The notes under the pieces: model-generated
The model's input: the letters and a program-made list of their open reading frames with translations, nothing else
What the model was told of the DNA's origin: nothing
Database searches by the model: none
Part shown: positions 20,559 through 52,980 of the stretch, piece after piece
Layout of the letters: the number at the start of each line of letters is the position of its first letter
Position numbering within the stretch: the stretch's first letter is position 1
Program-made: the position numbers and the translations under genes
Assembly: GCA_945870225.1 (NCBI GenBank)
Contig: CAMBRF010000010.1
Coordinates: 20,880 to 84,879, forward strand
From: PVC group bacterium
GTDB taxonomy: Bacteria > Verrucomicrobiota > Kiritimatiellia > CAIKKV01 > CAITUY01
Direction: 5' to 3'
DNA length: 64,000 bases

Positions 20559-21071
20559 TTATGATCGGCGGCGGGTGATCCGGGAGGCGATGGCGCGATA
20601 CATCGCCTTCAGCGCACGAAGATCATGCTCGTTCTGCAGGACGAGCAGCCCGTGCTCAAAAACAAGTTCCGCCCGGTGCAGGTCCTGCATATCCACTACG
20701 GCCATGTCCATCATTTCAACATAGGCCCGAAGCTCGTCGGGGTGATCGCGGACGATCGCCTCATAGTCCGCCATGGCCTCCTCAAACATCCCCTTCTTCC
20801 GCTTGGCCTGCGGTATGCCGTACATCGGCGCCTTTCCGGAGGCACGCCTGTTCGAAAAATAGAGTGAGCCCCATGGCTCGGCAAGCCATCGCGCCAGAGG
20901 AACCGCAAAAGCGCACGAACCCAGAACGAAACAGACCATTCCGCCCAGAATGTGAGGCAGGGCGTCCCATGAACCCCCGGTGGGCATCAGCCTCCAACCC
21001 GCGAGAAAAAAGGCCGCCGCAATAAGACCCCCGATAACCAGCCGCTGTAGATTGGCGCGATCGTCGCCCAT
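20559..21071 (-). CDS. Hypothetical membrane-anchored protein (two N-terminal TM helices, short helical-repeat C-terminus)
   Basis: 170 aa. No recognisable catalytic motifs. Co-directional with and directly downstream of the PAP2-like ORFs. Confidence 0.4.
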   Translation of the reverse strand: MGDDRANLQRLVIGGLIAAAFFLAGWRLMPTGGSWDALPHILGGMVCFVLGSCAFAVPLARWLAEPWGSLYFSNRRASGKAPMYGIPQAKRKKGMFEEAMADYEAIVRDHPDELRAYVEMMDMAVVDMQDLHRAELVFEHGLLVLQNEHDLRALKAMYRAIASRITRRRS

Positions 21072-21097: not shown

Positions 21098-21842
21098 TCA
21101 GAGCCCGGCCGCCAGACAGATTTTCCCGGCGAGACCCGCCGCACAAAAGGCCGCCACAATGGCACCCAGAACATCCATGGTGTAATGCGCCCGGAGAACA
21201 ATCACCACCATTCCTTCAAGCGCCGCTACAAGGGCGACGGCAATCCCGAGACCGAACGGCAAATAATGGGCGGCCTCGATCGCCCCCAGAACGGCAATGG
21301 CCGTGTGCCCCGAAATGAAAAAATCATTAGCCGTCCCGTAGGTCACCAGAAGGGAAGGGAACCAGGGGTCGAAACCAGATCATCCTGGGCGGGGCCGGCA
21401 GCGCGCATATCACCTGGCACAATTGCCGGAAGGCAAAGAGAAGCAGCAAGGCGAGAAAGGGGCGCAGAGTGGGCCCGAAAATACCTGCCCCGATCAAAAA
21501 CAACCCGAAGAGATCGATGCCGGCCGAACTGGCAACGAGAAGGCCGGAGGCGGCCCGCCGGTGAGTATTCAACCAGGTATTCCACGAGGCCGTGAGGTCA
21601 TGAAGAAGATCGCCGATCTGGCCATCTTTTAAGCCCCGGCTCGCAATGAGCGACTGAGTCCAAAACCAGGCCGCAAGACTCACGCCGATCAGGAGTCCTT
21701 TCAGCATCAACCCCGCCGCCCGGCCGGCTATCCAGGACCCCTCACCCGCCGCCGAATTGGACCAGGCAATCAAGGCCAGGATCCCGACCAGAAGTCCGAG
21801 CATCAGAACCGCCACCAGCCACTTCCATCCCTGCTGCTTCAT
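21098..21842 (-). pseudogene. PAP2_C-type (sphingomyelin-synthase-like) lipid phosphatase/phosphotransferase gene split into two overlapping ORFs (21327..21842 and 21098..21346)
   Basis: Upstream ORF encodes only TM helices and ends '...FRPLVPFPSGDLRDG*'. Downstream ORF (GTG start, +1 frame, 20-nt overlap) carries the catalytic 'FISGHTA' and 'RAHYTMDV' (HxxxD) motifs. Together they make about 250 aa, typical of an intact PAP2_C protein. This could be a frameshift, a sequencing error or a genuine split. Confidence 0.4.
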
Positions 21843-23071
21843 CTTTCAAGAACCTCCCCCGGCTTCACTCCGATCCGGCGCCGGGAGGCCAACCCCACCA
21901 GCATGGCTTCCAACTCGGACCGGATCCGGGCCATGATGGGATCGGTCTCCACGCCCCGCTCACGGATCGGCGAAACCTCAATCGCCTCGCCCACCTCAAT
22001 CACAGCGCGCAGGGGGTGATGCAAGGGGGCCTGATCCGTCAGGTCCTCCTCGAACCGCTCCACCGTCTCCAACAGTCGCTCCGGGGTGGGTTGCGGAGAG
22101 AAGTAGCCCGGTGGGTAGAAAAACAATTGCTGGGCCAGATAGATGTCGGCGAGTTGACGCCAGCGCCGGGCGCGCTCCGCCTCATCAACACTCCCCGCCA
22201 CCAGCTCAGGCAACATCGCGGCCCTGAGGTTCTTGACCCGTGTCACAACATTGTCATTCCTCTTACCCTTGAGCCATTCGATCTCCAGAGGATCCAGCAA
22301 ATGATCAATCAACGCCGTCAACCGTGCCCTCAGGTCTCCTGTTTTCGGCCCTCCGAAGTATTCCATCTCCTTCAACATCAGCAGGGCTTCACCGACCTTG
22401 ACGATCCGTTCCGTCAAACTGAGCGATGACTGCGGCCGCCAGGACAGGCGATGCTCGATTTTTTCCAGGGCGCAAATCAGGGCCTCCTCCAGATTACCCT
22501 CGAAAAAGTACCGGATCGCCGTGGGATGGATGACGACCTTCCCGGTTCCTCCGTCCGCGGCCCGCTGCTTGGCGGCATTACGAGCAATGAACACCGTCCC
22601 ATCCATCAGATGGTTAACGTGGTCGTTGGTTCGCGAAATAACACCTTCCGGAAACAGAACCAGGGGACGTTTCGCCTCCACGAGGATCTGCACGGCGCAT
22701 TTGAGAGCCTCGCGATCCATGCCCTCTCGATACACACTGAAAGCGCCCGCGCGCCGCAGCAACCAGGTCTGGACGGCGGACTGCTTGAAAAGATGCCAGC
22801 TCGCCATGGTATGAAAAGGCGCCCCGACGGCATAGCCGAGATGGGCTAGAACCATCGGATCCGGCGGGCGGCAATGGTTCGGCGTGATCATCACGCCATG
22901 CCCGGCCTTGATGGATTTCTGCAACCGCTCCACGCCAATCAATTCAACCTCCTCGACGCCATGTGTGCGGCGCAGGTAGACCGGCAGGAGGGGTTTCAGC
23001 AACATGGGCCAGAACAGCCCTCGACAGGGGGGAACGAACTCGTACGGCTGATCAATGATAATGTTCTGCAT
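21839..23071 (-). CDS. Lysophospholipid/glycerol-3-phosphate acyltransferase (PlsC/LPLAT family)
   Basis: About 410 aa from ATG at 23071 (track ORF extends to 23209 and would overlap the upstream gene). LPLAT motif I 'ITPNHCRPPD' (NHxxxxD). Motif III 'LFPEG'. Confidence 0.65.
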   Translation of the reverse strand: MQNIIIDQPYEFVPPCRGLFWPMLLKPLLPVYLRRTHGVEEVELIGVERLQKSIKAGHGVMITPNHCRPPDPMVLAHLGYAVGAPFHTMASWHLFKQSAVQTWLLRRAGAFSVYREGMDREALKCAVQILVEAKRPLVLFPEGVISRTNDHVNHLMDGTVFIARNAAKQRAADGGTGKVVIHPTAIRYFFEGNLEEALICALEKIEHRLSWRPQSSLSLTERIVKVGEALLMLKEMEYFGGPKTGDLRARLTALIDHLLDPLEIEWLKGKRNDNVVTRVKNLRAAMLPELVAGSVDEAERARRWRQLADIYLAQQLFFYPPGYFSPQPTPERLLETVERFEEDLTDQAPLHHPLRAVIEVGEAIEVSPIRERGVETDPIMARIRSELEAMLVGLASRRRIGVKPGEVLER

Positions 23072-23091
23072 ACCGCCTCTTCCAAAACCTT

Positions 23092-26000
23092 TTACCTTGT
23101 CAGGGTATACTGTTGGGCCAAGTCCTTCAGGGCTCGCAAATCCAGTTTCCCGCTGCCCAATATAGGCAGGGCCTCGATACGGAAACAGGACTCCCGGCCC
23201 GGTTTCCATAAGTTGGGAATATCGACCGCCTCCACTGTCTGGACAAGGCGAGCAGCATCCCCAGCCTCATCAGTATACAGCAGAACGAGCTTCTCACCTT
23301 TCCGATCATCAGGGACGGACACCACCGCCAGAACCTGGGTGGAGAGGCCCAGTTGCCGGTGCAACGCCTCCTCGATCGCCAGATGCGGCACCATCTCCCC
23401 GCCGATTTTGCTGAACCGGGAAAGGCGGTCGGTGATCGCCACAAACCCCTCCGCATCCATCCGGGCAACATCGCCGGTATTATACCATCCATCCTGCAGC
23501 ACCTCGGCGGTCAGCTCGGGCTTGCCAAGATACCCCAGCATGACGTTCGCCCCCTTTACCTTGAGTAAGCCGGCTTCGCCCACAGGCAGAGAACGCCCGG
23601 TATCGGGGTCCGTCACCTTAACCGCCACTCCCGGCAGGGGCAGCCCGACACAGCCTTCCTTCCAGCCGCGCTGGGCCACGCCTCCCGCCTCGACATGCGG
23701 CAGGCTCAGGGTGGCCACCGGCGACAACTCGGTGGCCCCGTAACCTTCCAGAGGACGGAGACCAAACCGCTCCTCGAAGGCCACAGCGAGACGCTCCTTG
23801 AGTTTTTCCGCCCCCACCACGACATACTTGAGCGAGGCGAAATCCTCTTTCGTCGCCTTGCGCAAATACAGCATGAGAAATGTCGGCGTGGCAAACAACA
23901 TCGTGGAACGGTTGTCTCGCACGAGCTTGGCGATCACGCCGCCATCCAGCGGGTTCGCGTGGTAGGTCGCCGAGAACCCGCTCAACAAGGGAAACCAGAT
24001 GGTCGCCGTATAGCCCAGCGAATGAAAGAAGGGCAACGCCGCACAGACATTGTCCGTGGGCGAAGATCGAAAGACCTGACGCAGGGACTCGATGTTCGAG
24101 ATAATGTTATGGTGGCTCAGCATAACCCCCTTGGGCTCTCCCGTGGAGCCCGAGGAAAAAATGATGGTTGCTGGACGGTCCGCCACAAACCCCGGAACCC
24201 GACCCAGTCGCCGCGCCGGAAGAAATATCGCCTTCAGAAAAGCCTTTCGCTTAGCCCCCGCCGTCAGGGCGGCCAGCAACTCCTCGATATAGATCGTCCC
24301 GACCGGTAACGCCACCGGGCCGATTTTTTCCAGAAACAGTTTTGAGGTGATGACCGTTTTTAGATCGCACTGCTGCACCGCAGACCGGAATGAGTCTGCG
24401 GAGGCGGTGAAGTTCAGGTTCACGGTTGTCTTGCCCAATAATGTAACCGCTATATTGGAAAGGGCCCCGCCCACGGAGGCCGGCAGCAGGATCCCCACCC
24501 GCTCCTGACCTGCCGTAAGGGTGCGGAGTTTATCGGCCAATGCCAGTGACCCGCAAAGCAGTTTGCCGTAGGTCAGCCGCTTCCCGGCGGCATCGGTCAT
24601 GGCAAGTTGGTCCCAATTGGCATGGGCGGATTTTGCAAACATCTCGCCGAGGGGGCGTCGCGCCGGTTTACGGTCCTGATAATACTCGCAGGAAAGTTCC
24701 ATGACGGCCTGACGAACCTCATGGACCGGCGTGGTCGGAGGCAAAGCCTGACCGAACAGAATGGTGACAGGGTATCGCAGCAAGGCGGACCGGCGCCGAA
24801 CAAGCTGGCCCTGGTAATAGCTGGTGATCGCCCCCCAGGCACCTCCGATGTAGACGGGAATGATGGGATAATCCGTCTCCTTCACCAAATAGGCAAACCC
24901 GCGCCGAAACTCGCGGAGATTGCCCGTGCGGGTCAGGGTCCCCTCGGCAAACACGCAGACCATGTACCCCTTGGCCAGAGCGGCGCGCACGGCATCCAGT
25001 GATTGCGCCAATTGTTTAGGCGAGGCCTTGGCATCCACCGGCAGACAACCCATAAGGTTGAACGCCCAGGCCAACCTGGGCCAGCGTGTGTAGAGGGAGG
25101 ATTCCACAATGAACCTCAGCCGCCGTTGCTGGGTCGCCACCAGAAGGAGGGCATCGAGATGGGAAACATGGTTGCAGACCAGAACCGCAGCCCCATCGAT
25201 CGGCACGTTGGCACTACCCAGGATTCGAATCCGATACGCCAGCCGTGTCACCACCAGCAGCACGAACCGCAACAGAAAATCAGGCAACACCCTCAGCGTG
25301 ACCACCAGGAGAACCAGGGTCAGCCCGGCCATCAACAGGAATCCCGTTGCCGCCGACCAGCCGAGTTTGACGGTGAGCAGTACCAGTGCCGAGGCCACGA
25401 GCGCACCAACCCAACTGAGAAAACTGGCGGCGGCAAGAATTTCGCCCCGCTGTTGCTGCGGGGCCTGCGACTGGATGAAGGAATCCACCGGCACAATGAA
25501 CAACCCGGCCCCCATTCCCGCCACCAGCACGGCGGGCCCGGCGTACACCACCGATGGCGGCAGCCACTTCAGAGCCAAGGCACCCAAGGCCAGAATGGTC
25601 GCCCCGAGGGGGACAATCCCGAACTCGATATTACGTCCGGACAATTTACCCGACAGGAACGCACCGGCCGCGATCCCTATCGAGGCTAGAAAGAAAAGGT
25701 AGCCGCTTTGCGCTTCGGTCAACCCCATCCGCTGCATGCCAAAAGGGATCAGGTTCAACTGCATGTAGGCGCCCAGCATGGTGAAATAGGCTGAAGCTAG
25801 AACGGCCTGAATCAGATAGCGATCCCTGCGGATGGACCACAGGGTGCGCCAGATATCCCGCAGGAACAGAGGCGTAATCTTCTGTTCCGATCCAGCGGGC
25901 GGAGTACGCCCGATCATGGTAGCGGCAACCAATCCCACCACCGCCGTGGCGACGCAAAGGCTTTGAGCCAGGGTGTAATTCGATTTCGTAACCCCGATCA

Positions 26001-26490
26001 GGAACGGGGCCACGGCAGAACCGAGCACCACGGCCAGGAAGGTGGCCATGACCAGCAGGCTGTTGGCCTTGGATAACTGGTCGCGACCGACCAGCTCCGG
26101 TACAATGCCGTACTTGGAAGGACTGAACAGGGCGCTGTGGGTTCCAATCAGGAAAAGGACGGCATAGAGGCCCCATTCACACCGGAAGAAGAAGGCGGCC
26201 ACCGCCCCCGCCATGGCCGCGACTTCCAGCACCTTGCAAAACACCAGGATATTGCGCTTGCTGAAACGGTCGGCCAGAACACCAGCCGCCGCGGAGAAAA
26301 GCAGAAACGGCGCAATAAACACCATCGCGGCCATCGCGGAAATGGTCGCCGCCGAGTCCGCCCCGCGCAAGTGAATCATAAAGAGGATCGCCAGCACCTT
26401 GAACACGTTGTCGTTCAGCGCCCCGCAAAATTGCGAAATATTGAGCGAGACAAATCCGCGGGATAGCGGCACAACGGGCGTTTCATTCAT
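23092..26490 (-). CDS. Tripartite fusion: MFS lysophospholipid transporter (LplT-like) + PlsC acyltransferase + acyl-ACP synthetase (Aas-like)
   Basis: 1132 aa. N-terminal 12-TM MFS domain ('SRGFVSLNISQFCGALNDNVFKV', 'GVLADRF'). Central 'VLVCNHVSHLDAL' (HxxxxD) and 'FAEGTLTRTG' acyltransferase motifs. C-terminal AMP-binding 'IIFSSGSTGEPKGVMLSHHN', 'GYGATE', 'GDVARMDAEGF'. Confidence 0.8.
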   Translation of the reverse strand: MNETPVVPLSRGFVSLNISQFCGALNDNVFKVLAILFMIHLRGADSAATISAMAAMVFIAPFLLFSAAAGVLADRFSKRNILVFCKVLEVAAMAGAVAAFFFRCEWGLYAVLFLIGTHSALFSPSKYGIVPELVGRDQLSKANSLLVMATFLAVVLGSAVAPFLIGVTKSNYTLAQSLCVATAVVGLVAATMIGRTPPAGSEQKITPLFLRDIWRTLWSIRRDRYLIQAVLASAYFTMLGAYMQLNLIPFGMQRMGLTEAQSGYLFFLASIGIAAGAFLSGKLSGRNIEFGIVPLGATILALGALALKWLPPSVVYAGPAVLVAGMGAGLFIVPVDSFIQSQAPQQQRGEILAAASFLSWVGALVASALVLLTVKLGWSAATGFLLMAGLTLVLLVVTLRVLPDFLLRFVLLVVTRLAYRIRILGSANVPIDGAAVLVCNHVSHLDALLLVATQQRRLRFIVESSLYTRWPRLAWAFNLMGCLPVDAKASPKQLAQSLDAVRAALAKGYMVCVFAEGTLTRTGNLREFRRGFAYLVKETDYPIIPVYIGGAWGAITSYYQGQLVRRRSALLRYPVTILFGQALPPTTPVHEVRQAVMELSCEYYQDRKPARRPLGEMFAKSAHANWDQLAMTDAAGKRLTYGKLLCGSLALADKLRTLTAGQERVGILLPASVGGALSNIAVTLLGKTTVNLNFTASADSFRSAVQQCDLKTVITSKLFLEKIGPVALPVGTIYIEELLAALTAGAKRKAFLKAIFLPARRLGRVPGFVADRPATIIFSSGSTGEPKGVMLSHHNIISNIESLRQVFRSSPTDNVCAALPFFHSLGYTATIWFPLLSGFSATYHANPLDGGVIAKLVRDNRSTMLFATPTFLMLYLRKATKEDFASLKYVVVGAEKLKERLAVAFEERFGLRPLEGYGATELSPVATLSLPHVEAGGVAQRGWKEGCVGLPLPGVAVKVTDPDTGRSLPVGEAGLLKVKGANVMLGYLGKPELTAEVLQDGWYNTGDVARMDAEGFVAITDRLSRFSKIGGEMVPHLAIEEALHRQLGLSTQVLAVVSVPDDRKGEKLVLLYTDEAGDAARLVQTVEAVDIPNLWKPGRESCFRIEALPILGSGKLDLRALKDLAQQYTLTR

Positions 26491-26525
26491 AGTCGTCGAT
26501 TTCTCCGGTCTGGGACACCCCGCTC

Positions 26526-27758
26526 TCAGTTGTTCCGCAGCCAGTTTCCAATTCTACCGCACACCTGATCACGGATCGTGAAGAAGAGAAAATGAGTCTG
26601 CCCTTCATAGAATTGGGATTCAAGAGGAATCCCCAGTCGCCTAATCGATTGTTCCGCCTCCTTAATGTAGTCGACAGGAATACGGTTGTCGGCGGTTCCA
26701 TGGAGGAGCAGGATCGGTTTGTCCTTCCACGCGGAGACGAACGGCGCGGTTAGGAGTTCCTCCGGTTCCAACACGGGTGAGATGAATATCAGTCCCCGGT
26801 AGGCATTCGGCGCGCGCCGCGCCCCGATACAGACGCCCCGGCCTCCGTTCGACAGACCCGCGAGATAGATACGCGACGCGTCCATCTGGGGATGCAGGGA
26901 ACAATACCGGCGCACCTGTTCAATCGCATCCCCACCCCCTGATTCATCCCAGTTCCCTGCTCCAAAGGTGGGCGCCACTATCGCAAACCCGTATTCGTCG
27001 GCCAAGCGTTTCCACACCCATAGATAGCCCCGGAAATTACCCAAGCTGCCATGTAGGAATATCACAACGGGCAGCCGTCGCGACGCAGGCGCATCCGGTA
27101 TGTACTCATAAAAATGCCCCACCGCCGCATGCCTCAGGAAGAGATCCTGATAAGTCTGGTTCAAGACGGACCCAAGACACTCGAATTTGGGAGAACATCG
27201 CATCTCGCCGTAGACGGCGAGGATCTGGGCCCGAAGTTCCATCGTGTTACGCTCATCCATCAACCGGTCCATCGTCGGAATGACGTAGGAGGCCAATACA
27301 AGCTGGTCCATTTCCGGAACCAGATTAGCCATGGACGATCTCTGATACGCCGTCGTCCCTGTAAAGCACGAACGCACCTCCGCCCCCTTCATAGGGAGCC
27401 CCTCCGGTGTGAGGTAGTAATCGATTCCCAGCAGAAGGACAGCAGTCATGCCTGACGCCAGAGCCACCGTCAGGATGCCGCGCTTTCGCCTGAGATACGA
27501 TGCAATCCAAAACATAACGGGCGCAGGACAACCAAGGATGACTGCCATAGCAAAAAGCCGTCCCTGGCAGGTTTCGGCGTGAGCCAGAAGCAATCCCGCC
27601 AGAATGTAGATGGGAACCAGGAAGATGATATAAAGCGTCATCGTCACAGAGACAACAAATCTAAGAACGAAACGCGTCTTCGCCATCCCAGCCTGATTCA
27701 GCCCGCTCCTGAGAGAGACGCCGCCGCGGGAAACAGGCACAACGGGCGTTTCATTCAT
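26526..27758 (-). CDS. Membrane-anchored alpha/beta-hydrolase (esterase/lysophospholipase-like)
   Basis: 410 aa. 3-4 N-terminal TM helices. C-terminal alpha/beta hydrolase fold with 'VVIFLHGSLGN' (oxyanion region), nucleophile elbow 'GLSNGG', and 'LLLHGTADNRIP' (Asp/His region). The first 16 residues are nearly identical to those of the downstream fusion gene. Confidence 0.7.
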   Translation of the reverse strand: MNETPVVPVSRGGVSLRSGLNQAGMAKTRFVLRFVVSVTMTLYIIFLVPIYILAGLLLAHAETCQGRLFAMAVILGCPAPVMFWIASYLRRKRGILTVALASGMTAVLLLGIDYYLTPEGLPMKGAEVRSCFTGTTAYQRSSMANLVPEMDQLVLASYVIPTMDRLMDERNTMELRAQILAVYGEMRCSPKFECLGSVLNQTYQDLFLRHAAVGHFYEYIPDAPASRRLPVVIFLHGSLGNFRGYLWVWKRLADEYGFAIVAPTFGAGNWDESGGGDAIEQVRRYCSLHPQMDASRIYLAGLSNGGRGVCIGARRAPNAYRGLIFISPVLEPEELLTAPFVSAWKDKPILLLHGTADNRIPVDYIKEAEQSIRRLGIPLESQFYEGQTHFLFFTIRDQVCGRIGNWLRNN

Positions 27759-27799
27759 GAGCGTGTCTTCCTGATTGAGATTGGCGCTGAGCCAGCGCT

Positions 27800-28924
27800 T
27801 TACTTCGTCTCGCGCGCCAGAATGTCAGCAACAATCGCGGCGGCGGCGTTGGGGCGGCCCATGCGCTTTGCCCGGTTCCCCATCTGATCCAGACGGTCAC
27901 GATCCTCCAACAGGGACTTGACCTTGAAATACGCATCTTCCACCTCAAACAACCGCGCGGCGGCCCCGGCCTCCAGAACTGTCTCGCAGTTCCGCTGCTC
28001 CTGACCGGGAATCGGATTGATCACCAGCATCGGACGGCCCTTGGCAAGAACCTCGGAGGTCGTCAGTCCGCCCGGCTTGGAGATCACCAGATCACAGGCA
28101 TCCATCATCACATGAATGTTGGAGACAAACCCGTGGACCACCACCGGGGTGCGGATGGTCGCCGCCAGCGCCTCGGCTTCCTGTTTCATCTTCTCGTTCG
28201 CGCCGGCAACCACAACCAGACGGCAAACGGGAGTCTCCTGCCCGAAGGCACGGATGAGATCCAGCGTCGGCCCCACGCCGAACCCTCCGCTTAATAGCAG
28301 CACAACCGGCAGATCGGACGGAAGACCAAGCGCCTTCATCGCGTCGGCTTTCGATTGCCCCTGCTGAAACACCGGATCAATCGGAATACCTGTCACCACC
28401 ACCCGGTCAGCCGGCTGCCCGCGCCGGACCAGATGCCGCCGGGCCTCCTCCATCGCCACATAGTAGGTGTCGGTATTCTCCAGGATCCAAAGGGAATGGA
28501 CGGCAAAGTCGGTGACCGCGCAATACACCCGGGCCTGCCGGCGCCGGCGCCGTGACGCGCGGGTCAGGAGTTGCAGCGGCATGAAATGCGTACAGACCGC
28601 AATATCCGGATCGAACTCCTTATAAAACTTCAGAAACGAAAGCGTGTTCATCTTGTTGAAAACGGCCCGGATTTCCTTTCTCCACGGAACATCCGCCTTG
28701 CGATCAGCCTCGGAATAGAGGTAGCCCCACAACTCCGGCGCCTTGCGGACCAGATCGAGATAGCCTTCCGAATACGTTTTCCTGAAAATCCCGGCAGTAT
28801 AGTCGAGGATATCGCAGACCTTGACCTCCGCCTCCGGCCGTGCCTGAAGAAACGCCTTGGCCAGGGCTTCCGCCGCCCGCCGATGTCCCGCACCCGCCGA
28901 GGCATGCAACAAGAGAATTTTCAT
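27800..28924 (-). CDS. MGDG-synthase/UgtP-like diacylglycerol glycosyltransferase (GT28)
   Basis: About 374 aa from ATG at 28924 (track ORF extends to 28960). N-terminal 'MKILLLHASAGAGHRRAAEAL' matches the MGDG_synth/UgtP signature. C-terminal GT-B domain 'VVLLLSGGFGVG...GRPMLVINPIPGQE'. Confidence 0.7.
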   Translation of the reverse strand: MKILLLHASAGAGHRRAAEALAKAFLQARPEAEVKVCDILDYTAGIFRKTYSEGYLDLVRKAPELWGYLYSEADRKADVPWRKEIRAVFNKMNTLSFLKFYKEFDPDIAVCTHFMPLQLLTRASRRRRRQARVYCAVTDFAVHSLWILENTDTYYVAMEEARRHLVRRGQPADRVVVTGIPIDPVFQQGQSKADAMKALGLPSDLPVVLLLSGGFGVGPTLDLIRAFGQETPVCRLVVVAGANEKMKQEAEALAATIRTPVVVHGFVSNIHVMMDACDLVISKPGGLTTSEVLAKGRPMLVINPIPGQEQRNCETVLEAGAAARLFEVEDAYFKVKSLLEDRDRLDQMGNRAKRMGRPNAAAAIVADILARETK

Positions 28925-29421
28925 GCCGTCTCCTTTTTCAGGGTGCTCCGATACGACCACCCGATCAGCACCACCCCGGCGGCAAGGGACAGGATATAAT
29001 CAACCGGAACACCCAGCATCCAATGCTTGTGCCAGGGAATAAACTCGGGCGCAAACTTCCCGAACCCGAAGGCGGGATTAAAAAGGAACCATAAAAAGTC
29101 CTCGATGATCCAGAACACCATCACCGACCCGATGATGCGGACCTCATGCCGCCAGGAGAACAGTCCGGTTATGAACAGCGGTAGGTGAAACACGAGCGCC
29201 ATGAAAGCAAATACCCAGACATGGTAGCCGGTAATGGTCTTCCCGCCCCAGAACAGGTTCAACCAGGAGTTGTCGAGCCGCCAGGTCGGAAGGTTGGCCG
29301 CCCACCCCGCTCCACCCTCAATCTGAATCTCCACCGTGGCGAACACCGCGCCCAACAAGGTCACCCACAACAACAGCAACGCCGCCTGAACCCCGGGCGC
29401 GATTTGACGCGCGCCGGTCAT
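28921..29421 (-). CDS. Hypothetical integral membrane protein (4 TM helices), translationally coupled to the glycosyltransferase
   Basis: About 166 aa from ATG at 29421 (track ORF extends to 29502, overlapping the upstream gene). Trp/Phe-rich TM segments. Stop overlaps the GT28 start (ATGA). No family recognised. Confidence 0.4.
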   Translation of the reverse strand: MTGARQIAPGVQAALLLLWVTLLGAVFATVEIQIEGGAGWAANLPTWRLDNSWLNLFWGGKTITGYHVWVFAFMALVFHLPLFITGLFSWRHEVRIIGSVMVFWIIEDFLWFLFNPAFGFGKFAPEFIPWHKHWMLGVPVDYILSLAAGVVLIGWSYRSTLKKETA

Positions 29422-31019
29422 ATCGCGGGCCCCGCCTCCGGCTTGACGTCGGGCTTGACGGTCACCTCGGCAGGGGCATGACCCTGTGTCACCACATGCC
29501 ATTTCGGGCGCCGCCAGCTCTTCCTGAACTCATCAAGGGATCCCTCGCTGGCGATCCTGGTCTTCTCCTGTCCGTCAAGGAACAGGACCAGATCATACTG
29601 CTGATCCGCCGTGCCATAGGTCGCGTCGAATTGATGAACCAACTCATTGGCCGGGGTGGCAGGCCGCCCAAGAATACTCAGGATTGGAAAGGTCAACCCG
29701 CGCGAGTCGGGACATACCTGATAGGACTTATACACCAACTCCGTACAGACAATGGCCGAGTCGGTCGTAAAATCAAAATTGTAATCATAGGGCCGCCCGA
29801 CATAGTGGAACGAGCGGAACAGCGCCACGGCCCGTTCTTTCTTGGTCAGGCGCGGACGTAGGGCGCACAGGCTGTCCGCCGCGCCGGAATGTTCCAGCGT
29901 GGTAAACAGGACCCCCTCCCCGATGGCTTCCAGGATGCGGGGGACATGACCCTCCTCCAGCACCGCCGTGCATTGCGCATAGGCCGCAGGGTATTTCGAT
30001 TTCAGCAGCGCGTCAAAGTCGCCGTCCTCCTGGCCCTGCGCCATGACCCAGGTCCGGGTGTCGGGATCGTTAAAAAACTCCTTACGATCCGCAGGGGTCC
30101 CCACATAGAGCACCGCATGGGGCCAGAAGCCCGGCAGACCGACATTCGACATGTACCATTCGCGACGCTCAAGCAGGACATCACCGGGAAGGAGTTTCTT
30201 GGCCGCCACGGCAAGTTGCTCCAGGGTAATAAGGCCTCCTTTCCAGCGCCACACCTTTGTATCGCCCATCCAGATCGAGACTCCTTTTTGGACGGGGAAC
30301 CAGGCCAGGCTGCCGCCCTTGCGCACCAACTCAAGCGCGTTATCGGCGGTCAGAAGCGAATCCTGGATGCGTCCCTTGGCGAGGACGGCGACATCCTGAT
30401 CAATGTTCACACTGCTCCGATCAGGTTTCTTGAACGTGGTCACCCAGATAGACTTGAAGGCCAGATATTCCGCCTTGCGCGCCACGTTGAGGACCAGGAA
30501 CTCAAACCGGCTGTAGGTCCCCTTTTCCAAACCGAGTTCCGGAACGGAATCGTTCAGCAGCACCTCCAGCCCGGGATCGTTCTCCACGAGTTTTACGAAA
30601 TCGAGCGAAAACCGGTATTGCGCCAGGAAAGCGGCGTAGGCGACAAGGAACGACTCGTCACGAACCTGACGGTCGACAATGAGAAAGGTTTTGCTGTGGG
30701 CACGCCGGACGGAATCCATGGCGATTGAGTAGTCGAGAAATGTCTTCCATGCGGTCCAGACTTCCTCACGTTGCTCCCGGGTCATCAGGCGGGCTTTCGT
30801 GGGCCGGCTCGTCGGGAACAAATCGGGCCGGGACTTCGCGAAACTAACGACCTGCTCCAGGCCGGCGCGATACTGCTGCACGGCCGCCATATCGGCCTTG
30901 ATCCGGGCGCGCCGGTCATCCGCAGGCTCCTCGGCTCCCCTCACCACTCCAACCAGGAGCGAACCCCACACCAGCGCCACGCCAACAACCCGTCCCAGCC
31001 CGGTCCGTTTCCTGATCAT
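29418..31019 (-). CDS. Secreted YiiX/YaeF-type permuted-papain-fold (NlpC/P60 superfamily, C92-like) protein
   Basis: 533 aa. Signal peptide. C-terminal 'HYVGRPYDYNFDFTTDSAIVCTELVYKSY' matches the YiiX signature (catalytic Cys in a 'C(S/T)ELV' context after a 'YDxxFDF' block). The long N-terminal region has no recognisable family. Confidence 0.5.
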   Translation of the reverse strand: MIRKRTGLGRVVGVALVWGSLLVGVVRGAEEPADDRRARIKADMAAVQQYRAGLEQVVSFAKSRPDLFPTSRPTKARLMTREQREEVWTAWKTFLDYSIAMDSVRRAHSKTFLIVDRQVRDESFLVAYAAFLAQYRFSLDFVKLVENDPGLEVLLNDSVPELGLEKGTYSRFEFLVLNVARKAEYLAFKSIWVTTFKKPDRSSVNIDQDVAVLAKGRIQDSLLTADNALELVRKGGSLAWFPVQKGVSIWMGDTKVWRWKGGLITLEQLAVAAKKLLPGDVLLERREWYMSNVGLPGFWPHAVLYVGTPADRKEFFNDPDTRTWVMAQGQEDGDFDALLKSKYPAAYAQCTAVLEEGHVPRILEAIGEGVLFTTLEHSGAADSLCALRPRLTKKERAVALFRSFHYVGRPYDYNFDFTTDSAIVCTELVYKSYQVCPDSRGLTFPILSILGRPATPANELVHQFDATYGTADQQYDLVLFLDGQEKTRIASEGSLDEFRKSWRRPKWHVVTQGHAPAEVTVKPDVKPEAGPAI

Positions 31020-31225
31020 CGATATCTCCTATGAGTTTGTTCCATCAAACATGTGCAAGGCATCGACGTCACCATTTTGGGAGGGACGGCGTGTCGCCGT
31101 CCGCGGCGCGCAACATGCGCGCCCTCCCTTAGGTCCCGGACAACAACCCAACCAGGACCCCCTGTTAACAACGAGCCGTTACCGCCTGAATCGTGACGGC
31201 AACGGCTCGTTTACTTCCGATCATC

Positions 31226-32776
31226 CTACTTCGTCGGCTCGTCCTTCTTGATTTCCGGACGGATACTGCCCAGAAACTCGGGCAGGTCCAAACCAACCTG
31301 CTTGGCCAATTCATGCATCGGCGGCAGGGCTCCCATCAATTTCTTTCCGAGGTTTGACATCCCACCGTTCTCCGATCCCCCGTCCCAGATGATCACCTTC
31401 TCGATCGGCAGATCCTGAATGGCCTTCGCCTGAATATTGGCAATCTCCGTCAACCGTTCGATCAACAACAGGGACACGGCCACCTGCGGCTCGCCGGCGG
31501 CCTGAACGAGATTTCGATAGCCCAGCGCCTTGCCGTCGAGAACGGCCTGCAAGCCCTTGCCCTCTGCCGTCATCTTCGCCAGAGTCGCCTCAGCCTGCCC
31601 TTTCGCCCGCAGTACCGACTGCTCGCGTTCGGCGTCGGCGGCGATAACCACCCGTTTCTTTTCAGCCTCGGCAGGCACGACGATCTCGGCGTTCAGGCGC
31701 GACTGTTCGCGCATGGAGCGTGCGTCCTCGGCGAGTTTCTGTGCCGTTTCCTGGGCGACCCGAATCGACCCGTCCGCCTCCCGGGCGGCGATTTCGCCCT
31801 TGTTACGGGCCTCTTCCTCCGCCACTTTCTGCGTCGCCCGATAGCTGGCTTTCTGGGCGTTGGCCGCCGTTTCCGACTGCACGGCATCGGCTTCCAGTTT
31901 GGCGGTCTGCTGACGCTTGTTTTTATCCGCCGACGCCTCACCGATCTGGGCTTCCGCCATGGCGGCCGACACCTGTTGTCGTTTCTTACGCTGGGCATCC
32001 GCCTCGCCGATTTCAGCCTCGGCTGTGGCGGCGGCCACGGCAATGCGCTGATCGCGCTGGCGCTCAGCCACACCCATCTGCCCGTGCTTTTCCTGCTCGG
32101 CCACGTCCACATTCGCCTGGTTGATAGCTTCGGCGGCCGCTTTACGTCCGATGGCCTTGATGTAACCCGACTCATCCTCGATGTCGCGGATGTTGACGTT
32201 GATCACGGCTAAACCGATTTTCTCCAGTTCCCCGGCGACGGATTCGTTCACCTTCGACATGAAGACCTGACGATCCCGATTGATATCCTCAATCCGCATC
32301 GTCGCCAACACGGCGCGCATCTGGCCGATGATGATATCCTGGGCCAAGGTCTGAATCTGCTGGGAGCTCAAACCCAGCAGACGGATCGCAGCGTTTTCCA
32401 TCACACCGGGCTGGGTCGAAATGGCCGCCGTCACCGAGGTGGGCACGGTCACTCGAATGTTCTCCTGAGACAGCGCGTTGGACAGATCGATCGGCACCAC
32501 AAACGGTTCCAGATCAAGATAATCGTACGACTGGATCAGCGGCATGACAAAGGCCGCGCCCCCGTGGACGCACTTTGAGGCCCCACTGCTCGTCTTTCCG
32601 AAGATGACCAGAATCTTATTGGATGGACACCGCTTGTATCGGCTGACGAATGTCATGAACAACACAAAGATGATGACCGCCAGCAAAATACCCAGAAAGA
32701 CCGCGACCAGAGAAACGCCCGTCTCCATCCCCGCATCTAACTGAGCCAAAACGAGTCCATTCCATATCATATTCAT
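31226..32776 (-). CDS. Flotillin-like SPFH/band-7 protein (YqiK-type)
   Basis: 516 aa. N-terminal TM helix. SPFH domain. Long Ala/Glu/Gln/Lys-rich coiled-coil with repeated 'AEA(E/Q)IGEA(D/S)A(Q/D)(R/K)KKRQQ' blocks typical of flotillins. Confidence 0.85.
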   Translation of the reverse strand: MNMIWNGLVLAQLDAGMETGVSLVAVFLGILLAVIIFVLFMTFVSRYKRCPSNKILVIFGKTSSGASKCVHGGAAFVMPLIQSYDYLDLEPFVVPIDLSNALSQENIRVTVPTSVTAAISTQPGVMENAAIRLLGLSSQQIQTLAQDIIIGQMRAVLATMRIEDINRDRQVFMSKVNESVAGELEKIGLAVINVNIRDIEDESGYIKAIGRKAAAEAINQANVDVAEQEKHGQMGVAERQRDQRIAVAAATAEAEIGEADAQRKKRQQVSAAMAEAQIGEASADKNKRQQTAKLEADAVQSETAANAQKASYRATQKVAEEEARNKGEIAAREADGSIRVAQETAQKLAEDARSMREQSRLNAEIVVPAEAEKKRVVIAADAEREQSVLRAKGQAEATLAKMTAEGKGLQAVLDGKALGYRNLVQAAGEPQVAVSLLLIERLTEIANIQAKAIQDLPIEKVIIWDGGSENGGMSNLGKKLMGALPPMHELAKQVGLDLPEFLGSIRPEIKKDEPTK

Positions 32777-33408
32777 ATAACCGAATCCTTTCGCACCGTA
32801 TCCGCCTGTTCCCTTTCAACCTCGACCGCATTGTCCCCCAAAACCCGGAGGACCTTTACCGGTGAACCGGCCGCAATTGCACTGCCGCCCTTGGCCCGCG
32901 CCTTCTGCATGGTCACAACCCCATCACACATCACCCGAATTTCTCCAGTTCCATCCCTGGGAATGTTTAGGTAAACCGTAGCCGAGTTTCCCACACAGGA
33001 GGCCACCCGCATATTACCAGTCTGGGACATGCGCTGGAGCAGGTGCAGCAGCAGGGACACCATGACCATGGCGACCAAGCCCCAAATCAAAGCGTAAGTC
33101 AACGCCCGCGCCTGCGGCAGACCCCGACTCATATATAATCCACCCGCCCAGGTAAACAGGGTGAAAAAAGCAAGAATGGAGCGAACCGAGAGCAGCTTGA
33201 AAGCCGCCACGGAATCCTGGGCATCATGGGGCGAGTCGTGTTCGAATGAAGAGCCGACCTGCCCATCGAGATCCGCATCCCCGCCGCCAAGTCCGGCCAG
33301 CGCCGAAAACATCTGGATCAGGAAAAAAACCGTAAAAAAAGCAGCGGCTACAAAGAACCACTGATTCATCGGCTGCAACGCCATCCACCATGTCATAAGT
33401 GCATCCAT
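32773..33408 (-). CDS. NfeD/YqiJ-like membrane protein (flotillin partner)
   Basis: About 211 aa from ATG at 33408 (start uncertain; other in-frame ATGs at 33396, 33384 and 33459). N-terminal TM helices plus C-terminal OB-fold-like beta domain. Stop overlaps the flotillin start (ATGA). Confidence 0.55.
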   Translation of the reverse strand: MDALMTWWMALQPMNQWFFVAAAFFTVFFLIQMFSALAGLGGGDADLDGQVGSSFEHDSPHDAQDSVAAFKLLSVRSILAFFTLFTWAGGLYMSRGLPQARALTYALIWGLVAMVMVSLLLHLLQRMSQTGNMRVASCVGNSATVYLNIPRDGTGEIRVMCDGVVTMQKARAKGGSAIAAGSPVKVLRVLGDNAVEVEREQADTVRKDSVI

Positions 33409-33495
33409 ATCCCCTCCCCTTACTACTACACCCTTTGTGTTGTTGGCGCATGCTGCCACCTGCGAGCGCTCAACGCAACCTGAATCAGACCCGCC

Positions 33496-52595: not shown

Positions 52596-52980
52596 AAGAA
52601 AGACCTTTTAGGATCATTCCGTAGCAGAATCCAAATTGCCATCAACCCGAATTCGAGAACAAGGACAAGTTACAGCCACACGAAAACGGGTTCAACCCTT
52701 CTTACCGACTCCAGGAAATATACGCGAGGGCAAGCAGCCTGTTGCCCCCCGGCTCAGCCGGAGGCTTCGCCCAACCTTGGGAAAACCCAGTGGTTTTGCA
52801 GGGCGAGGCGTTTCGCCGAGCCGCCTTGAAGCAAATGCATTGATTTTCATAGGGCCTCTTGACGGTACGGCTTGACCGGCAAGTCTTCGAATTATAGCAT
52901 GTTGATAGTAGTGCCACTGCTCGCAAGCCAGGGTTATGGCTTCAAATTAGGTGGCAGTCAAAACAGGGGGAGGAATCGCA

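Follow-up and report, generated by a model that had tools for sequence, protein, structure and literature searches.

Two independently conserved envelope-lipid modules, with an inserted gene between them, in a PVC group bacterium

Does a tight run of co-directional lipid genes make up one biochemical system, or have separate sets of genes come to lie side by side? The question is raised by positions 21098-31019 of a 64,000-nucleotide stretch of DNA from a PVC group bacterium, the whole of which we call the window. An earlier note had read all ten genes that it counted here as a single lipid-repair and head-group-exchange system, induced by phosphate limitation and placed in flotillin microdomains. 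The lipid-gene run is confirmed as real, and the lipid-related character of its genes is supported. The calls of PAP2_C, PlsC, the MFS-acyltransferase-AMP-ligase fusion, alpha/beta-hydrolase, GT28, 4-TM, YiiX and flotillin were all borne out. The interpretation as a whole held up in part. With modest confidence, we read the region as two envelope-lipid modules, A and B, that are conserved independently and were recently brought side by side, with one inserted gene between them. The features are as follows.

32773-33459, minus strand: 228-aa membrane protein in the NfeD position, a neighbour outside the conserved modules
31226-32776, minus strand: flotillin (Band_7, 1.3e-27), a neighbour outside the conserved modules
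31020..31225, minus strand: structured intergenic region with hairpins, from flotillin to gene H
29418..31019, minus strand: gene H, module A, exported 533-aa YiiX-type permuted-papain (NlpC/P60) enzyme
28921..29421, minus strand: gene G, module A, orphan 166-aa protein with four predicted TM helices
27800..28924, minus strand: gene F, module A, GT28 lipid glycosyltransferase of the MGDG-synthase/UgtP-like kind
27710..27758, minus strand: copy of the first 16 codons of fusion gene D, now the start of gene E (partner copy at 26442-26490)
26526..27758, minus strand: gene E, membrane-anchored alpha/beta-hydrolase between modules A and B
23092..26490, minus strand: gene D, module B, fusion protein of 1132 aa (LplT-like MFS transporter, PlsC-type acyltransferase, acyl-ACP synthetase)
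21839..23071, minus strand: gene C, module B, 410-aa PlsC-like acyltransferase (Acyltransferase, 3.5e-14)
21098..21842, minus strand: PAP2_C gene, module B, sphingomyelin-synthase/PDCT-like (PAP2_C, 8.7e-10 on an 82-aa ORF)
20559..21071, minus strand: protein of 170 aa encoded 26 nt downstream of PAP2_C, with TM segments and TPR-like helices

Eight minus-strand ORFs occupy the region. The YiiX/4-TM, 4-TM/GT and PlsC/PAP2_C junctions read as ATGA overlaps, and the other junctions of the island are gaps of 20-41 nt. Since every non-nested ORF of at least 250 aa between about 17.4 and 52.6 kb is a minus-strand ORF, the co-directionality of the island is not special.

In module A, the product of gene H has a signal-peptide-like N-terminus, then about 210 aa of helical domain, and last the catalytic domain, in which His301 and Cys425 are invariant. 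Gene G most likely starts at 29421, with an ATG that shares bases with the stop codon of H. Its AlphaFold2 model gives four TM helices (pLDDT 85.5) and it has many polar invariants (EIQIEG, LPTWR, TGYH, EDFLWF, NPAFG, PWHKHW and PxDY); searches returned no family match, no Pfam hit and no relative of known function. For gene F the proposed domains are confirmed, with MGDG_synth at 1.1e-28 over profile positions 1-169 of 169 and a GT28 C-terminal domain (Glyco_tran_28_C). Against the diglucosyl-DAG synthase model PRK13609 it scores 211.8 bits, under the cut-off of 500. Gene F has neither a TM helix nor a signal peptide and is therefore presumably cytoplasmic; its most likely start is 28924, an ATG that follows AAGGAG and overlaps the stop codon of G, and not 28960.

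These three genes recur together elsewhere. The 4-TM gene adjoins a GT28 gene, in both gene orders, in 19/19 contexts (the window, L001, L002, L005-L008, L049, L062, L065, L078, L082, L085-L088, L169, L170 and the P0016 contig), among which the named records are Verrucomicrobia-labelled MAGs, Geobacter/Geobacteraceae, Oryzomonas, Riflebacteria and one Deltaproteobacteria-labelled MAG. Of 80 genome loci anchored on YiiX, 15 also hold a GT28 gene, in the orders YiiX-4TM-GT, YiiX-GT-4TM, GT-YiiX and YiiX-GT; in the PAP2_C-anchored control set, 0/80 loci have the two together. None of the lipid partners lies close by in 57 of the 80 YiiX-anchored loci. A functional tie of the GT28 gene to the 4-TM and YiiX genes is supported. 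The YiiX gene often adjoins exported phosphatases of the APP1 or PTP type: relatives of 57-75% identity have YiiX fused to a PTP domain (HCQHGADRTG), which L062 and L086 encode as an exported protein of its own, and an APP1_cat gene lies close to YiiX in 11 loci, together with a GT in L015, L019 and L038. Neither PTP nor APP1 genes were found in the window. A loose link to module B also shows outside the window lineage: L038, L062 and L082 each have a homologue of the fusion no more than 10 kb from YiiX-GT.

Module B has a conservation pattern of its own. The proposal that gene D is an LplT-Aas-type enzyme for lysophospholipid import and re-acylation is supported by NCBIfam equivalog NF006386, whose cut-off of 1221 it passes with 1354 bits, and the fusion is thus an already catalogued family. 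Its component domains are MFS_1 (5.5e-28), Acyltransferase (7e-25) and AMP-binding (1.1e-66), with NHVSHLD as the HX4D motif. The most likely start of gene C is 23071, 20 nt beyond D, and the gene shares 4 nt with the PAP2_C gene; its product has NHCRPPD as its HX4D motif and is extended at the C-terminus by about 200 aa. In the PAP2_C gene, one extra G at about 21370, placed by aligning the DNA with the genes of L005 and L001 (both intact, 254 aa), leaves ORFs of 171 aa (the N-terminal half) and 82 aa; the SGHT and HYTMD motifs are kept downstream of the frameshift, and P0511, a relative that clusters with it at 90% identity, encodes an intact protein of 247 aa. The domain call stands, and the head-group enzyme proposed from it is frameshifted in this genome. 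A PlsC-like gene and/or the fusion directly adjoins PAP2_C in 60 of 62 informative PAP2_C-anchored loci, with the PlsC-like gene directly upstream in 46 of the 62 informative metagenome loci. GT, 4-TM or YiiX genes are found in 0/80 of the PAP2_C-anchored loci. The downstream 170-aa protein, for which all Pfam matches are sub-threshold, has a homologue after PAP2_C in L005 only.

Beyond the window, modules A and B adjoin only in its close relatives L001 and L005, and an adjacency limited to so narrow a lineage may be without functional significance. L005 alone repeats the whole block with flotillin, and the lipid genes without hydrolase and flotillin recur in L001 as well. Co-conservation of the block as a unit, whose failure the earlier note had itself named as the outcome that counts against it, is refuted, and two modules are seen instead. 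Gene E, at the junction, has a GLSNG nucleophile elbow (GxSxG) at residue 301 and N-terminal hydrophobic segments, and it matches Abhydrolase_2, DLH, Esterase_PHB and Peptidase_S9, all just over their cut-offs. Its homologue is absent from every related locus examined. The first 49 nt of E form a direct repeat with the start of D (84% identity, complete over the first 23 nt), and D holds the original copy because its N-terminus is conserved in relatives. The repeat marks gene E as a recent insertion, specific to this lineage, in which the first 49 nt of the fusion gene were duplicated. Its hydrolase call survives with weak Pfam matches, and its membership of the island does not. The same GT/fusion junction is no more than a 96-nt gap in L001 and holds two PIN-domain genes with small partner ORFs in L005.

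At the upstream edge, flotillin and the 228-aa membrane protein, whose assignment as NfeD is not confirmed (match at E=0.14), are kept beside the island only in L005, the closest relative; the genes upstream of the island in L001 encode an FAD oxidoreductase and a GH32 enzyme, and in one distant locus, that of Oryzomonas rubra, the third gene upstream of the 4-TM gene is a Band_7 gene. Immediately after the stop codon of flotillin comes a perfect hairpin of 17 bp, with further GC-rich hairpins after it. The interval 31020..31225 folds with an MFE of -98.1 kcal/mol (z = -5.46 against shuffles) and matches no Rfam family, and at the equivalent place in L005 a T-run comes after a hairpin. The interval is likely a transcription boundary and the promoter region of the island. 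With this strong hairpin between flotillin and the island, and with the neighbourhood in L005 and the one distant Band_7 locus as its evidence, the microdomain link is not upheld.

All the above suggest a division of labour in which module A probably makes a sugar-lipid and module B probably salvages damaged phospholipids. Gene F would most likely glycosylate diacylglycerol (DAG) to glycosyl-DAG, and G, its constant partner, would be a membrane subunit that either transfers substrate or product lipid from one side of the membrane to the other or modifies it. Gene H, an exported thiol (Cys/His) acyl-enzyme, may remove or transfer an acyl chain of envelope glycerolipids in the periplasm. In relatives, its exported partners of the PTP type or of the APP1 PA-phosphatase type would turn phosphatidate-type lipids into DAG. 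Gene D would import lysophospholipids, activate fatty acids itself and use these for re-acylation, which is the established chemistry of LplT and Aas, and gene C would be a second acyltransferase. The PAP2_C protein, where intact, would be a phosphotransferase of the sphingomyelin-synthase family that releases DAG from phospholipid. Jointly, with DAG passing between them, the modules would make glycolipid from phospholipid and repair the lysolipids left as by-products. The conversion of phospholipid to glycolipid claimed earlier is plausible on these grounds, and the added phosphatases of relatives are consistent with it. With PAP2_C frameshifted and no PTP or APP1 gene in the window, this genome either lacks the proposed supply of DAG or has it in broken form. 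For control by phosphate limitation, the evidence is one distant GT/4-TM pair beside PhoBR-PstSCAB-PhoU.

That all ten genes form one phosphate-responsive system in flotillin microdomains now appears improbable. The tight co-directional run, the synteny of the whole block with flotillin and a 1539-aa upstream gene in L005, the Band_7 gene of Oryzomonas rubra and the one pair that abuts PhoBR-PstSCAB-PhoU would fit such a system. However, the synteny says little, as L005 is a close relative (84-96% identity), and L001 (about 81%) is already without flotillin and hydrolase. Further points against it are the 0/80 PAP2_C loci with module A, the insertion of the hydrolase, the terminator-like hairpin structure between flotillin and the island, and pho/pst genes not being seen among the scanned ORFs of the window. 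More doubtful still, and very improbable in our judgement, is the idea that the neighbourhood means nothing beyond the translationally coupled pairs, with unrelated envelope genes piled up in a long same-strand stretch. It accounts for the uninterrupted minus-strand genes around the island, which run over about 33 kb, for the unrelated insertions taken up at the A/B junction and for the 57 of 80 YiiX-family loci without lipid neighbours, but it does not sit well with the invariable GT/4-TM adjacency, the 60 of 62 loci in which PAP2_C adjoins PlsC or the fusion, or a YiiX-GT linkage that recurs in several gene orders and distant lineages. By a rough, uncomputed estimate, such adjacencies are far above chance for families that occur about once per genome.

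A somewhat stronger but still unlikely alternative is that module A builds a modified surface glycolipid instead of recycling phospholipid: the GT would make the glycolipid, the 4-TM protein would flip it and the YiiX-type enzyme would acylate its sugar or a lipoprotein in the manner of LnsAB, with module B adjoining only to clear the lysophospholipid left by acyl transfer. The precedent is LnsAB, a permuted papain with a polytopic partner and a phospholipid acyl donor (PMC7387801, PMC13559823), and glycolipids and phosphoglycolipids are present in Kiritimatiella glycovorans (PMC5148204). The translational coupling of H, G and F and the recurrence of a fusion homologue close to YiiX-GT in three lineages also agree with it. 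Against this, the 4-TM protein, which has no Pfam hit, is unrelated to LnsB/CPBP and also occurs with the GT alone, without YiiX; GT-YiiX pairs without the 4-TM gene exist, and the recurrent exported partners of the PA-phosphatase type fit lipid breakdown better than glycolipid decoration. The juxtaposition of two modules remains the reading that we favour.

Several known systems resemble parts of these modules. Gene F has the architecture of UgtP/YpfP, the diglucosyl-DAG synthase of Firmicutes, which works with the LtaA flippase, and of the plant MGDG synthase MGD1, namely an MGDG_synth N-domain and a GT28 C-domain. In the ypfP-ltaA operon of S. aureus the glycosyltransferase gene is reportedly paired with a membrane-protein gene, and gene F is likewise so paired. 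However, F falls far under the UgtP equivalog cut-off (211.8 vs 500), and its partner is a 166-aa 4-TM orphan, whereas LtaA is a 12-TM MFS flippase. A further difference is that the host appears to be a diderm, in which no lipoteichoic acid would be expected.

LnsA of Staphylococcus aureus, an exported permuted papain, forms with its membrane partner LnsB a two-component lipoprotein N-acyltransferase that takes the sn-1 acyl chain of PG, leaving a lysophospholipid (PMC7387801, PMC13559823), and YiiX was crystallised with a bound fatty acid (PMC3142127). Genes H and G share with LnsA/LnsB the combination of an exported YiiX-like Cys/His enzyme and a small polytopic membrane protein. They differ in that H, at 533 aa, has the extra helical domain of about 210 aa, in that G is not of the CPBP type, and in that the S. 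aureus genes are non-contiguous while the pair here is coupled to a glycosyltransferase.

The proposed logic of phospholipid to DAG to glycosylation is that of PlcP-Agt remodelling under phosphate limitation, in which a phospholipase C is combined with a glycosyltransferase such as Dde_3613, an Agt homologue in Desulfovibrio alaskensis (PMC5193443); PAP2_C, PTP or APP1 would replace the metallophosphoesterase PlcP, and GT28 the GT4 enzyme Agt. Enzymes of the sphingomyelin-synthase family have PC- and PE-phospholipase C activity that yields DAG (PMC8648842, PMC7988496). The SGH and HYxxD catalytic motifs of sphingomyelin synthase/PDCT are kept here, in a bacterial protein of 247-254 aa that is frameshifted in this genome. 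For LplT/Aas the function has been established with the E. coli proteins, and the fused forms are described as uncharacterised (PMC11416262). Gene D, like PRK08633 (NF006386), joins the MFS flippase, HX4D acyltransferase and acyl-ACP synthetase in one chain, whereas in E. coli LplT and Aas are two proteins of one operon, and here and in most relatives the fusion is tied to an extra PlsC-like acyltransferase and to PAP2_C.

Inspection of 21098-31019 revealed eight ORFs, all on the minus strand, and profile searches confirmed each domain that an earlier note had named within this island. Module A comprises a YiiX-type permuted papain (H), an orphan 4-TM protein (G) and a GT28 glycosyltransferase (F, GT), while module B consists of an LplT-Aas fusion (D), a PlsC-like acyltransferase (C) and the PAP2_C gene. 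An alpha/beta-hydrolase gene (E) lies between them. Both this anatomy and the division into two modules have good support. The tight junctions noted previously are also present, with ATGA overlaps at YiiX/4-TM and at 4-TM/GT (AAGGAG stands before the second of these), a 4-nt overlap of PlsC and PAP2_C, and gaps of 20-41 nt elsewhere. The shared direction of the genes is unremarkable, because every non-nested ORF of at least 250 aa from about 17.4 to 52.6 kb of the window is on the minus strand. The features of the island and its surroundings are as follows.

21098-21842, minus strand: PAP2_C gene, split into two ORFs
26442-26490 and 27710-27758: 49-nt direct repeat
31020-31225: 206-nt spacer between the flotillin gene and the YiiX gene
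33496-38115: 1539-aa protein with an N-terminal thioredoxin-like domain, HEAT repeats, a glutaredoxin-like domain and a hydrophobic C-terminal membrane region, kept upstream in the related locus L005
38112-47754, same strand: operon resembling the aerotolerance (Bat) operon, encoding a MoxR-type AAA_3 ATPase, DUF58, BatA/VWA, two large family-less proteins and DUF4159
52951-54159, plus strand: 402-aa protein with a strong Pfam TMEM43 match (4.8e-84), a family named for a nuclear-envelope protein of eukaryotes

A scan of 185,579 species genomes, anchored on aligned YiiX-type sequences, gave 476 confirmed relatives. Of these, 80 loci were retained with flanking sequence of at most 10 kb, and all window proteins were searched against their six-frame ORFs. 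The earlier interpretation proved half right: the lipid-remodelling theme stands and a glycolipid connection is plausible, but a single conserved ten-gene system is not borne out. The complete arrangement, from the 1539-aa upstream gene and flotillin to a 170-aa downstream gene, recurs among the 80 YiiX-anchored loci in L005 alone, a MAG whose proteins are 74-96% identical to those of the window. The other close relative, L001 (about 81% identical), retains YiiX-4TM-GT-fusion-PlsC-PAP2_C, and its upstream region carries an FAD oxidoreductase gene and a GH32 gene in place of flotillin. A further locus, L089:8400-10740 (PAP2_C 78% identical), has PlsC-PAP2_C only, the fusion and module A being absent within 10 kb; the composition of the island therefore changes over short evolutionary distances.

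The junction of GT and fusion appears to be an insertion hot spot. It holds no gene in L001, and two PIN-domain (VapC-like) genes with small partner ORFs and no hydrolase in L005 (13600-15650). The hydrolase found there in the window had been proposed as a candidate lysophospholipase of the system. Its GLSNG motif at residue 301 and several weak Pfam matches just above the cut-offs agree with an alpha/beta-hydrolase, and its N-terminal segments are hydrophobic, but it is not conserved within the block, as no homologue exists in any fetched locus of the YiiX- and PAP2_C-anchored sets and the gene is marked by an insertion scar. The two copies of the 49-nt repeat are 84% identical, with the initial 23 nt identical (MNETPVVPLSRGFVSL and MNETPVVPVSRGGVSL), and the 16 opening codons of the fusion gene are repeated at the start of the hydrolase gene. 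Since the fusion N-terminus is conserved in relatives, the fusion is the original copy and the hydrolase the newcomer. The repeat looks like a target-site or recombination scar and may be the source of the start codon of the hydrolase.

The association of the island with flotillin and NfeD fared similarly. The adjacent gene does encode a Band_7 flotillin (1.3e-27), but its NfeD partner is not confirmed (E=0.14), and the adjacency is seen in L005 only and is absent from L001. The spacer between flotillin and YiiX has an MFE of -98.1 kcal/mol (z = -5.46 versus shuffled sequence), with a perfect 17-bp hairpin directly after the flotillin stop codon and further GC-rich hairpins. The equivalent site in L005 shows a hairpin followed by a T-run, and the part of the spacer past the first hairpin is missing there. 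An Rfam search of 20.3-33.6 kb of the window gave no match, and a consensus scan for sigma-70 promoters and intrinsic terminators found no more sites than in shuffled sequence. The spacer looks like a transcription boundary of the terminator-like kind. A Band_7 gene also occurs three genes upstream of the 4-TM gene in Oryzomonas; this single recurrence keeps the idea of a flotillin link alive without establishing it. Neither the hydrolase nor flotillin is part of the conserved system.

Fusion D (1132 aa) contains MFS_1 (5.5e-28, residues 18-366), Acyltransferase (7e-25, residues 420-548) with the HX4D motif NHVSHLD read in translation, and a C-terminal AMP-binding domain (1.1e-66). It scores 1354 bits against NCBIfam NF006386 (PRK08633), titled 'acyl-[ACP]--phospholipid O-acyltransferase', above the cut-off of 1221, and covers 8-1144 of the 1147 profile positions. 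Judged by its sequence, D is a member of the already catalogued LplT-Aas family, for which lysophospholipid flipping and re-acylation are predicted. Such fused ORFs are known to exist but are uncharacterised (PMC11416262). The PlsC-like gene C matches Acyltransferase at 3.5e-14.

A second scan, of metagenomes, was anchored on an alignment of PAP2_C homologues, and 80 loci were kept. Among the 62 loci whose upstream sequence reaches 300 nt or more, 60 have the PlsC-like gene, the fusion or both directly adjacent to PAP2_C, arranged as fusion-PlsC-PAP2_C, PlsC-PAP2_C, fusion-PAP2_C, or PAP2_C facing a convergent fusion gene. No GT, 4-TM or strong YiiX match occurs in any of the 80 loci. Module B thus stands as a unit in its own right, and a strongly conserved one. 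L038 (Elusimicrobia) and L062 and L082 (Geobacter) tie the modules together more loosely: in each of them, a homologue of the fusion is found no more than 10 kb from YiiX-GT. In L038:13839-18313 (an Elusimicrobia MAG) and L062:1487-6079 (a Geobacter MAG), the gene immediately ahead of the fusion is an Amidohydro_2 gene. The trio of fusion, PlsC-like gene and PAP2_C suggests that many soil and sediment bacteria possess lysophospholipid salvage with a head-group or DAG step absent in E. coli. Literature searches on bacterial PAP2_C/SMS-like enzymes found nothing relevant.

The PAP2_C gene of the window is split. The PF14360 match (8.7e-10) lies on an 82-aa ORF, and the 171-aa ORF ahead of it supplies the N-terminal half of the gene. 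DNA alignment to the intact 254-aa genes of L005 and L001 places one extra G at about 21370, where the window reads tggtttcGacccc. The SGHT and HYTMD catalytic motifs downstream of the shift, invariant in the family alignment, are unchanged. P0511, a homologue from the same 90%-identity cluster, is an intact 247-aa protein and reads MIWFHPGFPSLLVTYG. Only one other record of the truncated 171-aa ORF was found; it is identical to that of the window, and its contig also encodes the H and D proteins of the window. With an intact relative and no independent record of the split ORF, the shift is either very recent or an assembly error; this putative head-group enzyme is thus either broken in the window or affected by a sequencing or assembly error. 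P0273 was considered as an independent witness of the frameshift and rejected, being identical to the window's own ORF. An exact-sequence look-up of P0273 and of the hydrolase for genomic context returned no record.

Protein H passes the Pfam Peptidase_C92 (YaeF/YiiX) gathering cut-off of 27 marginally, at 29.5 bits, and its homologues match more strongly (e.g. 64.8 bits in L015). It shows the permuted order of His before Cys, namely H301 (FWPHA) and C425 (VCTEL), both invariant in 20 sequences, and its fold resembles the solved structures of YiiX and BcPPNE. Against the E. coli YiiX equivalog NF007458 it scores 21.6 bits, below the cut-off of 216. H belongs to a distinct YiiX subfamily whose members measure about 510-530 aa and carry a helical domain on the N-terminal side; the N-terminus of H is signal-peptide-like as read in translation and alignment. 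In L006, L007, L008 and the contig of P0016, where YiiX is 63-75% identical, YiiX-4TM-GT alone stays together. There, as in the sister clade at large (57-75% identity), YiiX bears a C-terminal PTP/DSP phosphatase domain with the active site HCQHGADRTG, which the clade of the window lacks. At 45-51% YiiX identity, the linkage of YiiX to GT is found again in further lineages and with different gene orders.

Gene arrangements and phosphatase partners of YiiX-type homologues
YiiX-GT-4TM: Geobacteraceae L049, L062, L065, L082
GT-4TM, YiiX copies nearby: L078
GT-YiiX: Elusimicrobia L015, L038; Verrucomicrobia L019, L032; delta-proteobacterial MAG L070
YiiX-GT: Geobacter MAG L027
YiiX fused to PTP/DSP: L006, L007, L008; P0010, P0012-P0013, P0015-P0019, P0021, P0025, P0026
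APP1 near YiiX: L015, L019, L020, L030, L038, L041, L045, L054, L057, L060, L061

YiiX and GT occur together in 15 of the 80 YiiX-anchored loci, and in 9 of the 54 with at least 2 kb on each side; in the PAP2_C-anchored set, which served as control, the linkage was seen in 0/80. Two tandem YiiX-type paralogues lie upstream of GT-4TM in L049, L065, L082 and L086 (Geobacteraceae and a Deltaproteobacteria-labelled MAG). GT28 enzymes of the MGDG-synthase/UgtP type glycosylate DAG. The GT of the window matches the full profile of the MGDG_synth N-domain PF06925 (1.1e-28) and the GT28 C-domain PF04101 (9.2e-07). Its score against the diglucosyl-DAG synthase equivalog PRK13609 is 211.8 bits, below the cut-off of 500, and these profile matches assign it to MGDG synthase/UgtP at family level only.

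The AlphaFold2 model of the 4-TM protein G has four TM helices (pLDDT 85.5), and K/R counts leave its membrane topology ambiguous. A Pfam scan of all 37 family members returned only noise, and the family profile found no match among PDB sequences. A word-based search retrieved 564 homologues, in which 41 columns are invariant and identity between lineages with different labels is typically 55-65%, and an exhaustive profile search of a library clustered at 50% identity retrieved at least 675 cluster representatives. Each of the six distant contexts fetched has GT28 directly beside the 4-TM gene, whichever of the two comes first and whether YiiX is present or not. These contexts are a Riflebacteria MAG, a Deltaproteobacteria-labelled MAG, two unlabelled NCBI assemblies, a JGI metagenome contig and Oryzomonas rubra (L169), whose gene order is PlsY-GT-4TM. 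The family profile located the 4-TM gene in 15 fetched loci, each with GT adjacent; together with the window, L169, L170 and the P0016 contig, GT28 adjoins the 4-TM gene in 19/19 contexts. A Rosetta-stone check found no 4-TM/glycosyltransferase fusion among the ten longer proteins examined. A rare fusion, P0390, joins a circularly permuted YpsA-type SLOG domain (cpYpsA-SLOG) to the 4-TM family. The 4-TM protein is strictly GT28-linked and has no Pfam family; it is a candidate missing subunit of the machinery by which diderm bacteria make or export glycolipids.

Phosphatases are further neighbours of YiiX. A separate PTP gene, its product with a signal-peptide-like N-terminus, lies directly beside YiiX in L062 (Geobacter) and L086, and an APP1-type phosphatidate-phosphatase gene adjoins the GT-YiiX loci without a 4-TM gene in L015, L019 and L038. 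Of the 80 loci, 11 have APP1, a PA phosphatase according to its Pfam family description, adjacent to YiiX or close by, and in eight of those 11 there is no glycosyltransferase nearby. GT, PTP or APP1 is present in 23 of the 80 YiiX loci. The accessory proteins inspected in L038 and L062 (APP1, alpha/beta-hydrolase, PTP) all start with export-type hydrophobic segments. No PTP or APP1 gene occurs in the whole 64-kb window, and a literature search on bacterial APP1 found nothing relevant. In L170:4800-19000, the GT28/4-TM pair lies between Metallophos and DAG-kinase-like genes and a PhoB/PhoR-like system followed by PstSCAB-PhoU. This one locus, the sole basis for phosphate control of GT/4-TM, gives a hint of it; no comparable arrangement was seen in the window.

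Several of these families have established chemistry. LplT moves lysophospholipids inward by flipping, and Aas, after activating fatty acid onto ACP, uses it to re-acylate them (PMC11416262). PAP2_C enzymes of the sphingomyelin-synthase family transfer or hydrolyse phospho-head-groups with release of DAG (PMC8648842, PMC7988496), and YiiX/LRAT-type permuted papains form acyl-thioester intermediates and bind fatty acids (PMC3142127). Source labels of the homologues point to a probable Kiritimatiellota/Verrucomicrobiota-type host for the window, and the one described species of Kiritimatiella contains two glycolipids and phosphoglycolipids (PMC5148204). Because of the established enzyme chemistry and the linkage patterns, we lean cautiously towards a scheme in which F with G would produce glycosyl-DAG, and exported H would act as an acyl-hydrolase or acyl-transferase on envelope glycerolipids, coupled to that synthesis. 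The exported phosphatases of relatives would yield DAG, module B would retrieve and re-acylate the resulting lysolipids, and an intact PAP2_C would furnish additional DAG. The substrates and the direction of lipid flow are those we infer, and the role and orientation ascribed to G are likewise putative.

A bolder reading, which we regard as possible though rather doubtful, is that GT28, the 4-TM protein, the exported YiiX-type thiol acyl-enzyme and exported PTP or APP1 form an undescribed envelope pathway, spread over several distant lineages, that takes phospholipid apart at the periplasmic side and converts it to glycolipid. The 4-TM protein would then represent a new family, either of integral-membrane enzymes or of lipid flippases, on which these GT28 enzymes depend. 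If true, this pathway would give the large bacterial YiiX-type subfamily its first physiological role; permuted papains of the YiiX/YaeF type occur widely in bacteria, and what they do is described as poorly understood (PMC7387801, PMC3142127). That YiiX is repeatedly linked with a lipid glycosyltransferase and with exported PA-phosphatase-type enzymes offers a concrete, testable lipid role. The window itself combines known enzyme families into a mosaic, with one enzyme apparently broken. The more interesting results lie outside its genome: the GT28/4-TM pair, which is strict, and the YiiX-GT-phosphatase neighbourhood, which recurs. No description of either was found in the literature searched.

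Two known systems invite comparison. PlcP-Agt combines a metallophosphoesterase with a GT4 enzyme, whereas no Metallophos gene lies in the island and the GT there belongs to GT28; the likeness is functional only. A Desulfovibrio phosphate-limitation study was considered as a match for the GT of the window and set aside, the enzyme there being the GT4 Agt. In LnsAB, the exported YiiX/LRAT-type permuted papain LnsA takes, with a polytopic partner, the sn-1 acyl chain of PG (PMC7387801, PMC13559823). Its CPBP-fold membrane partner LnsB has no match in the island of the window, but the exported permuted-papain subunit is matched by H, which combines a signal-peptide-like N-terminus with the YiiX fold.
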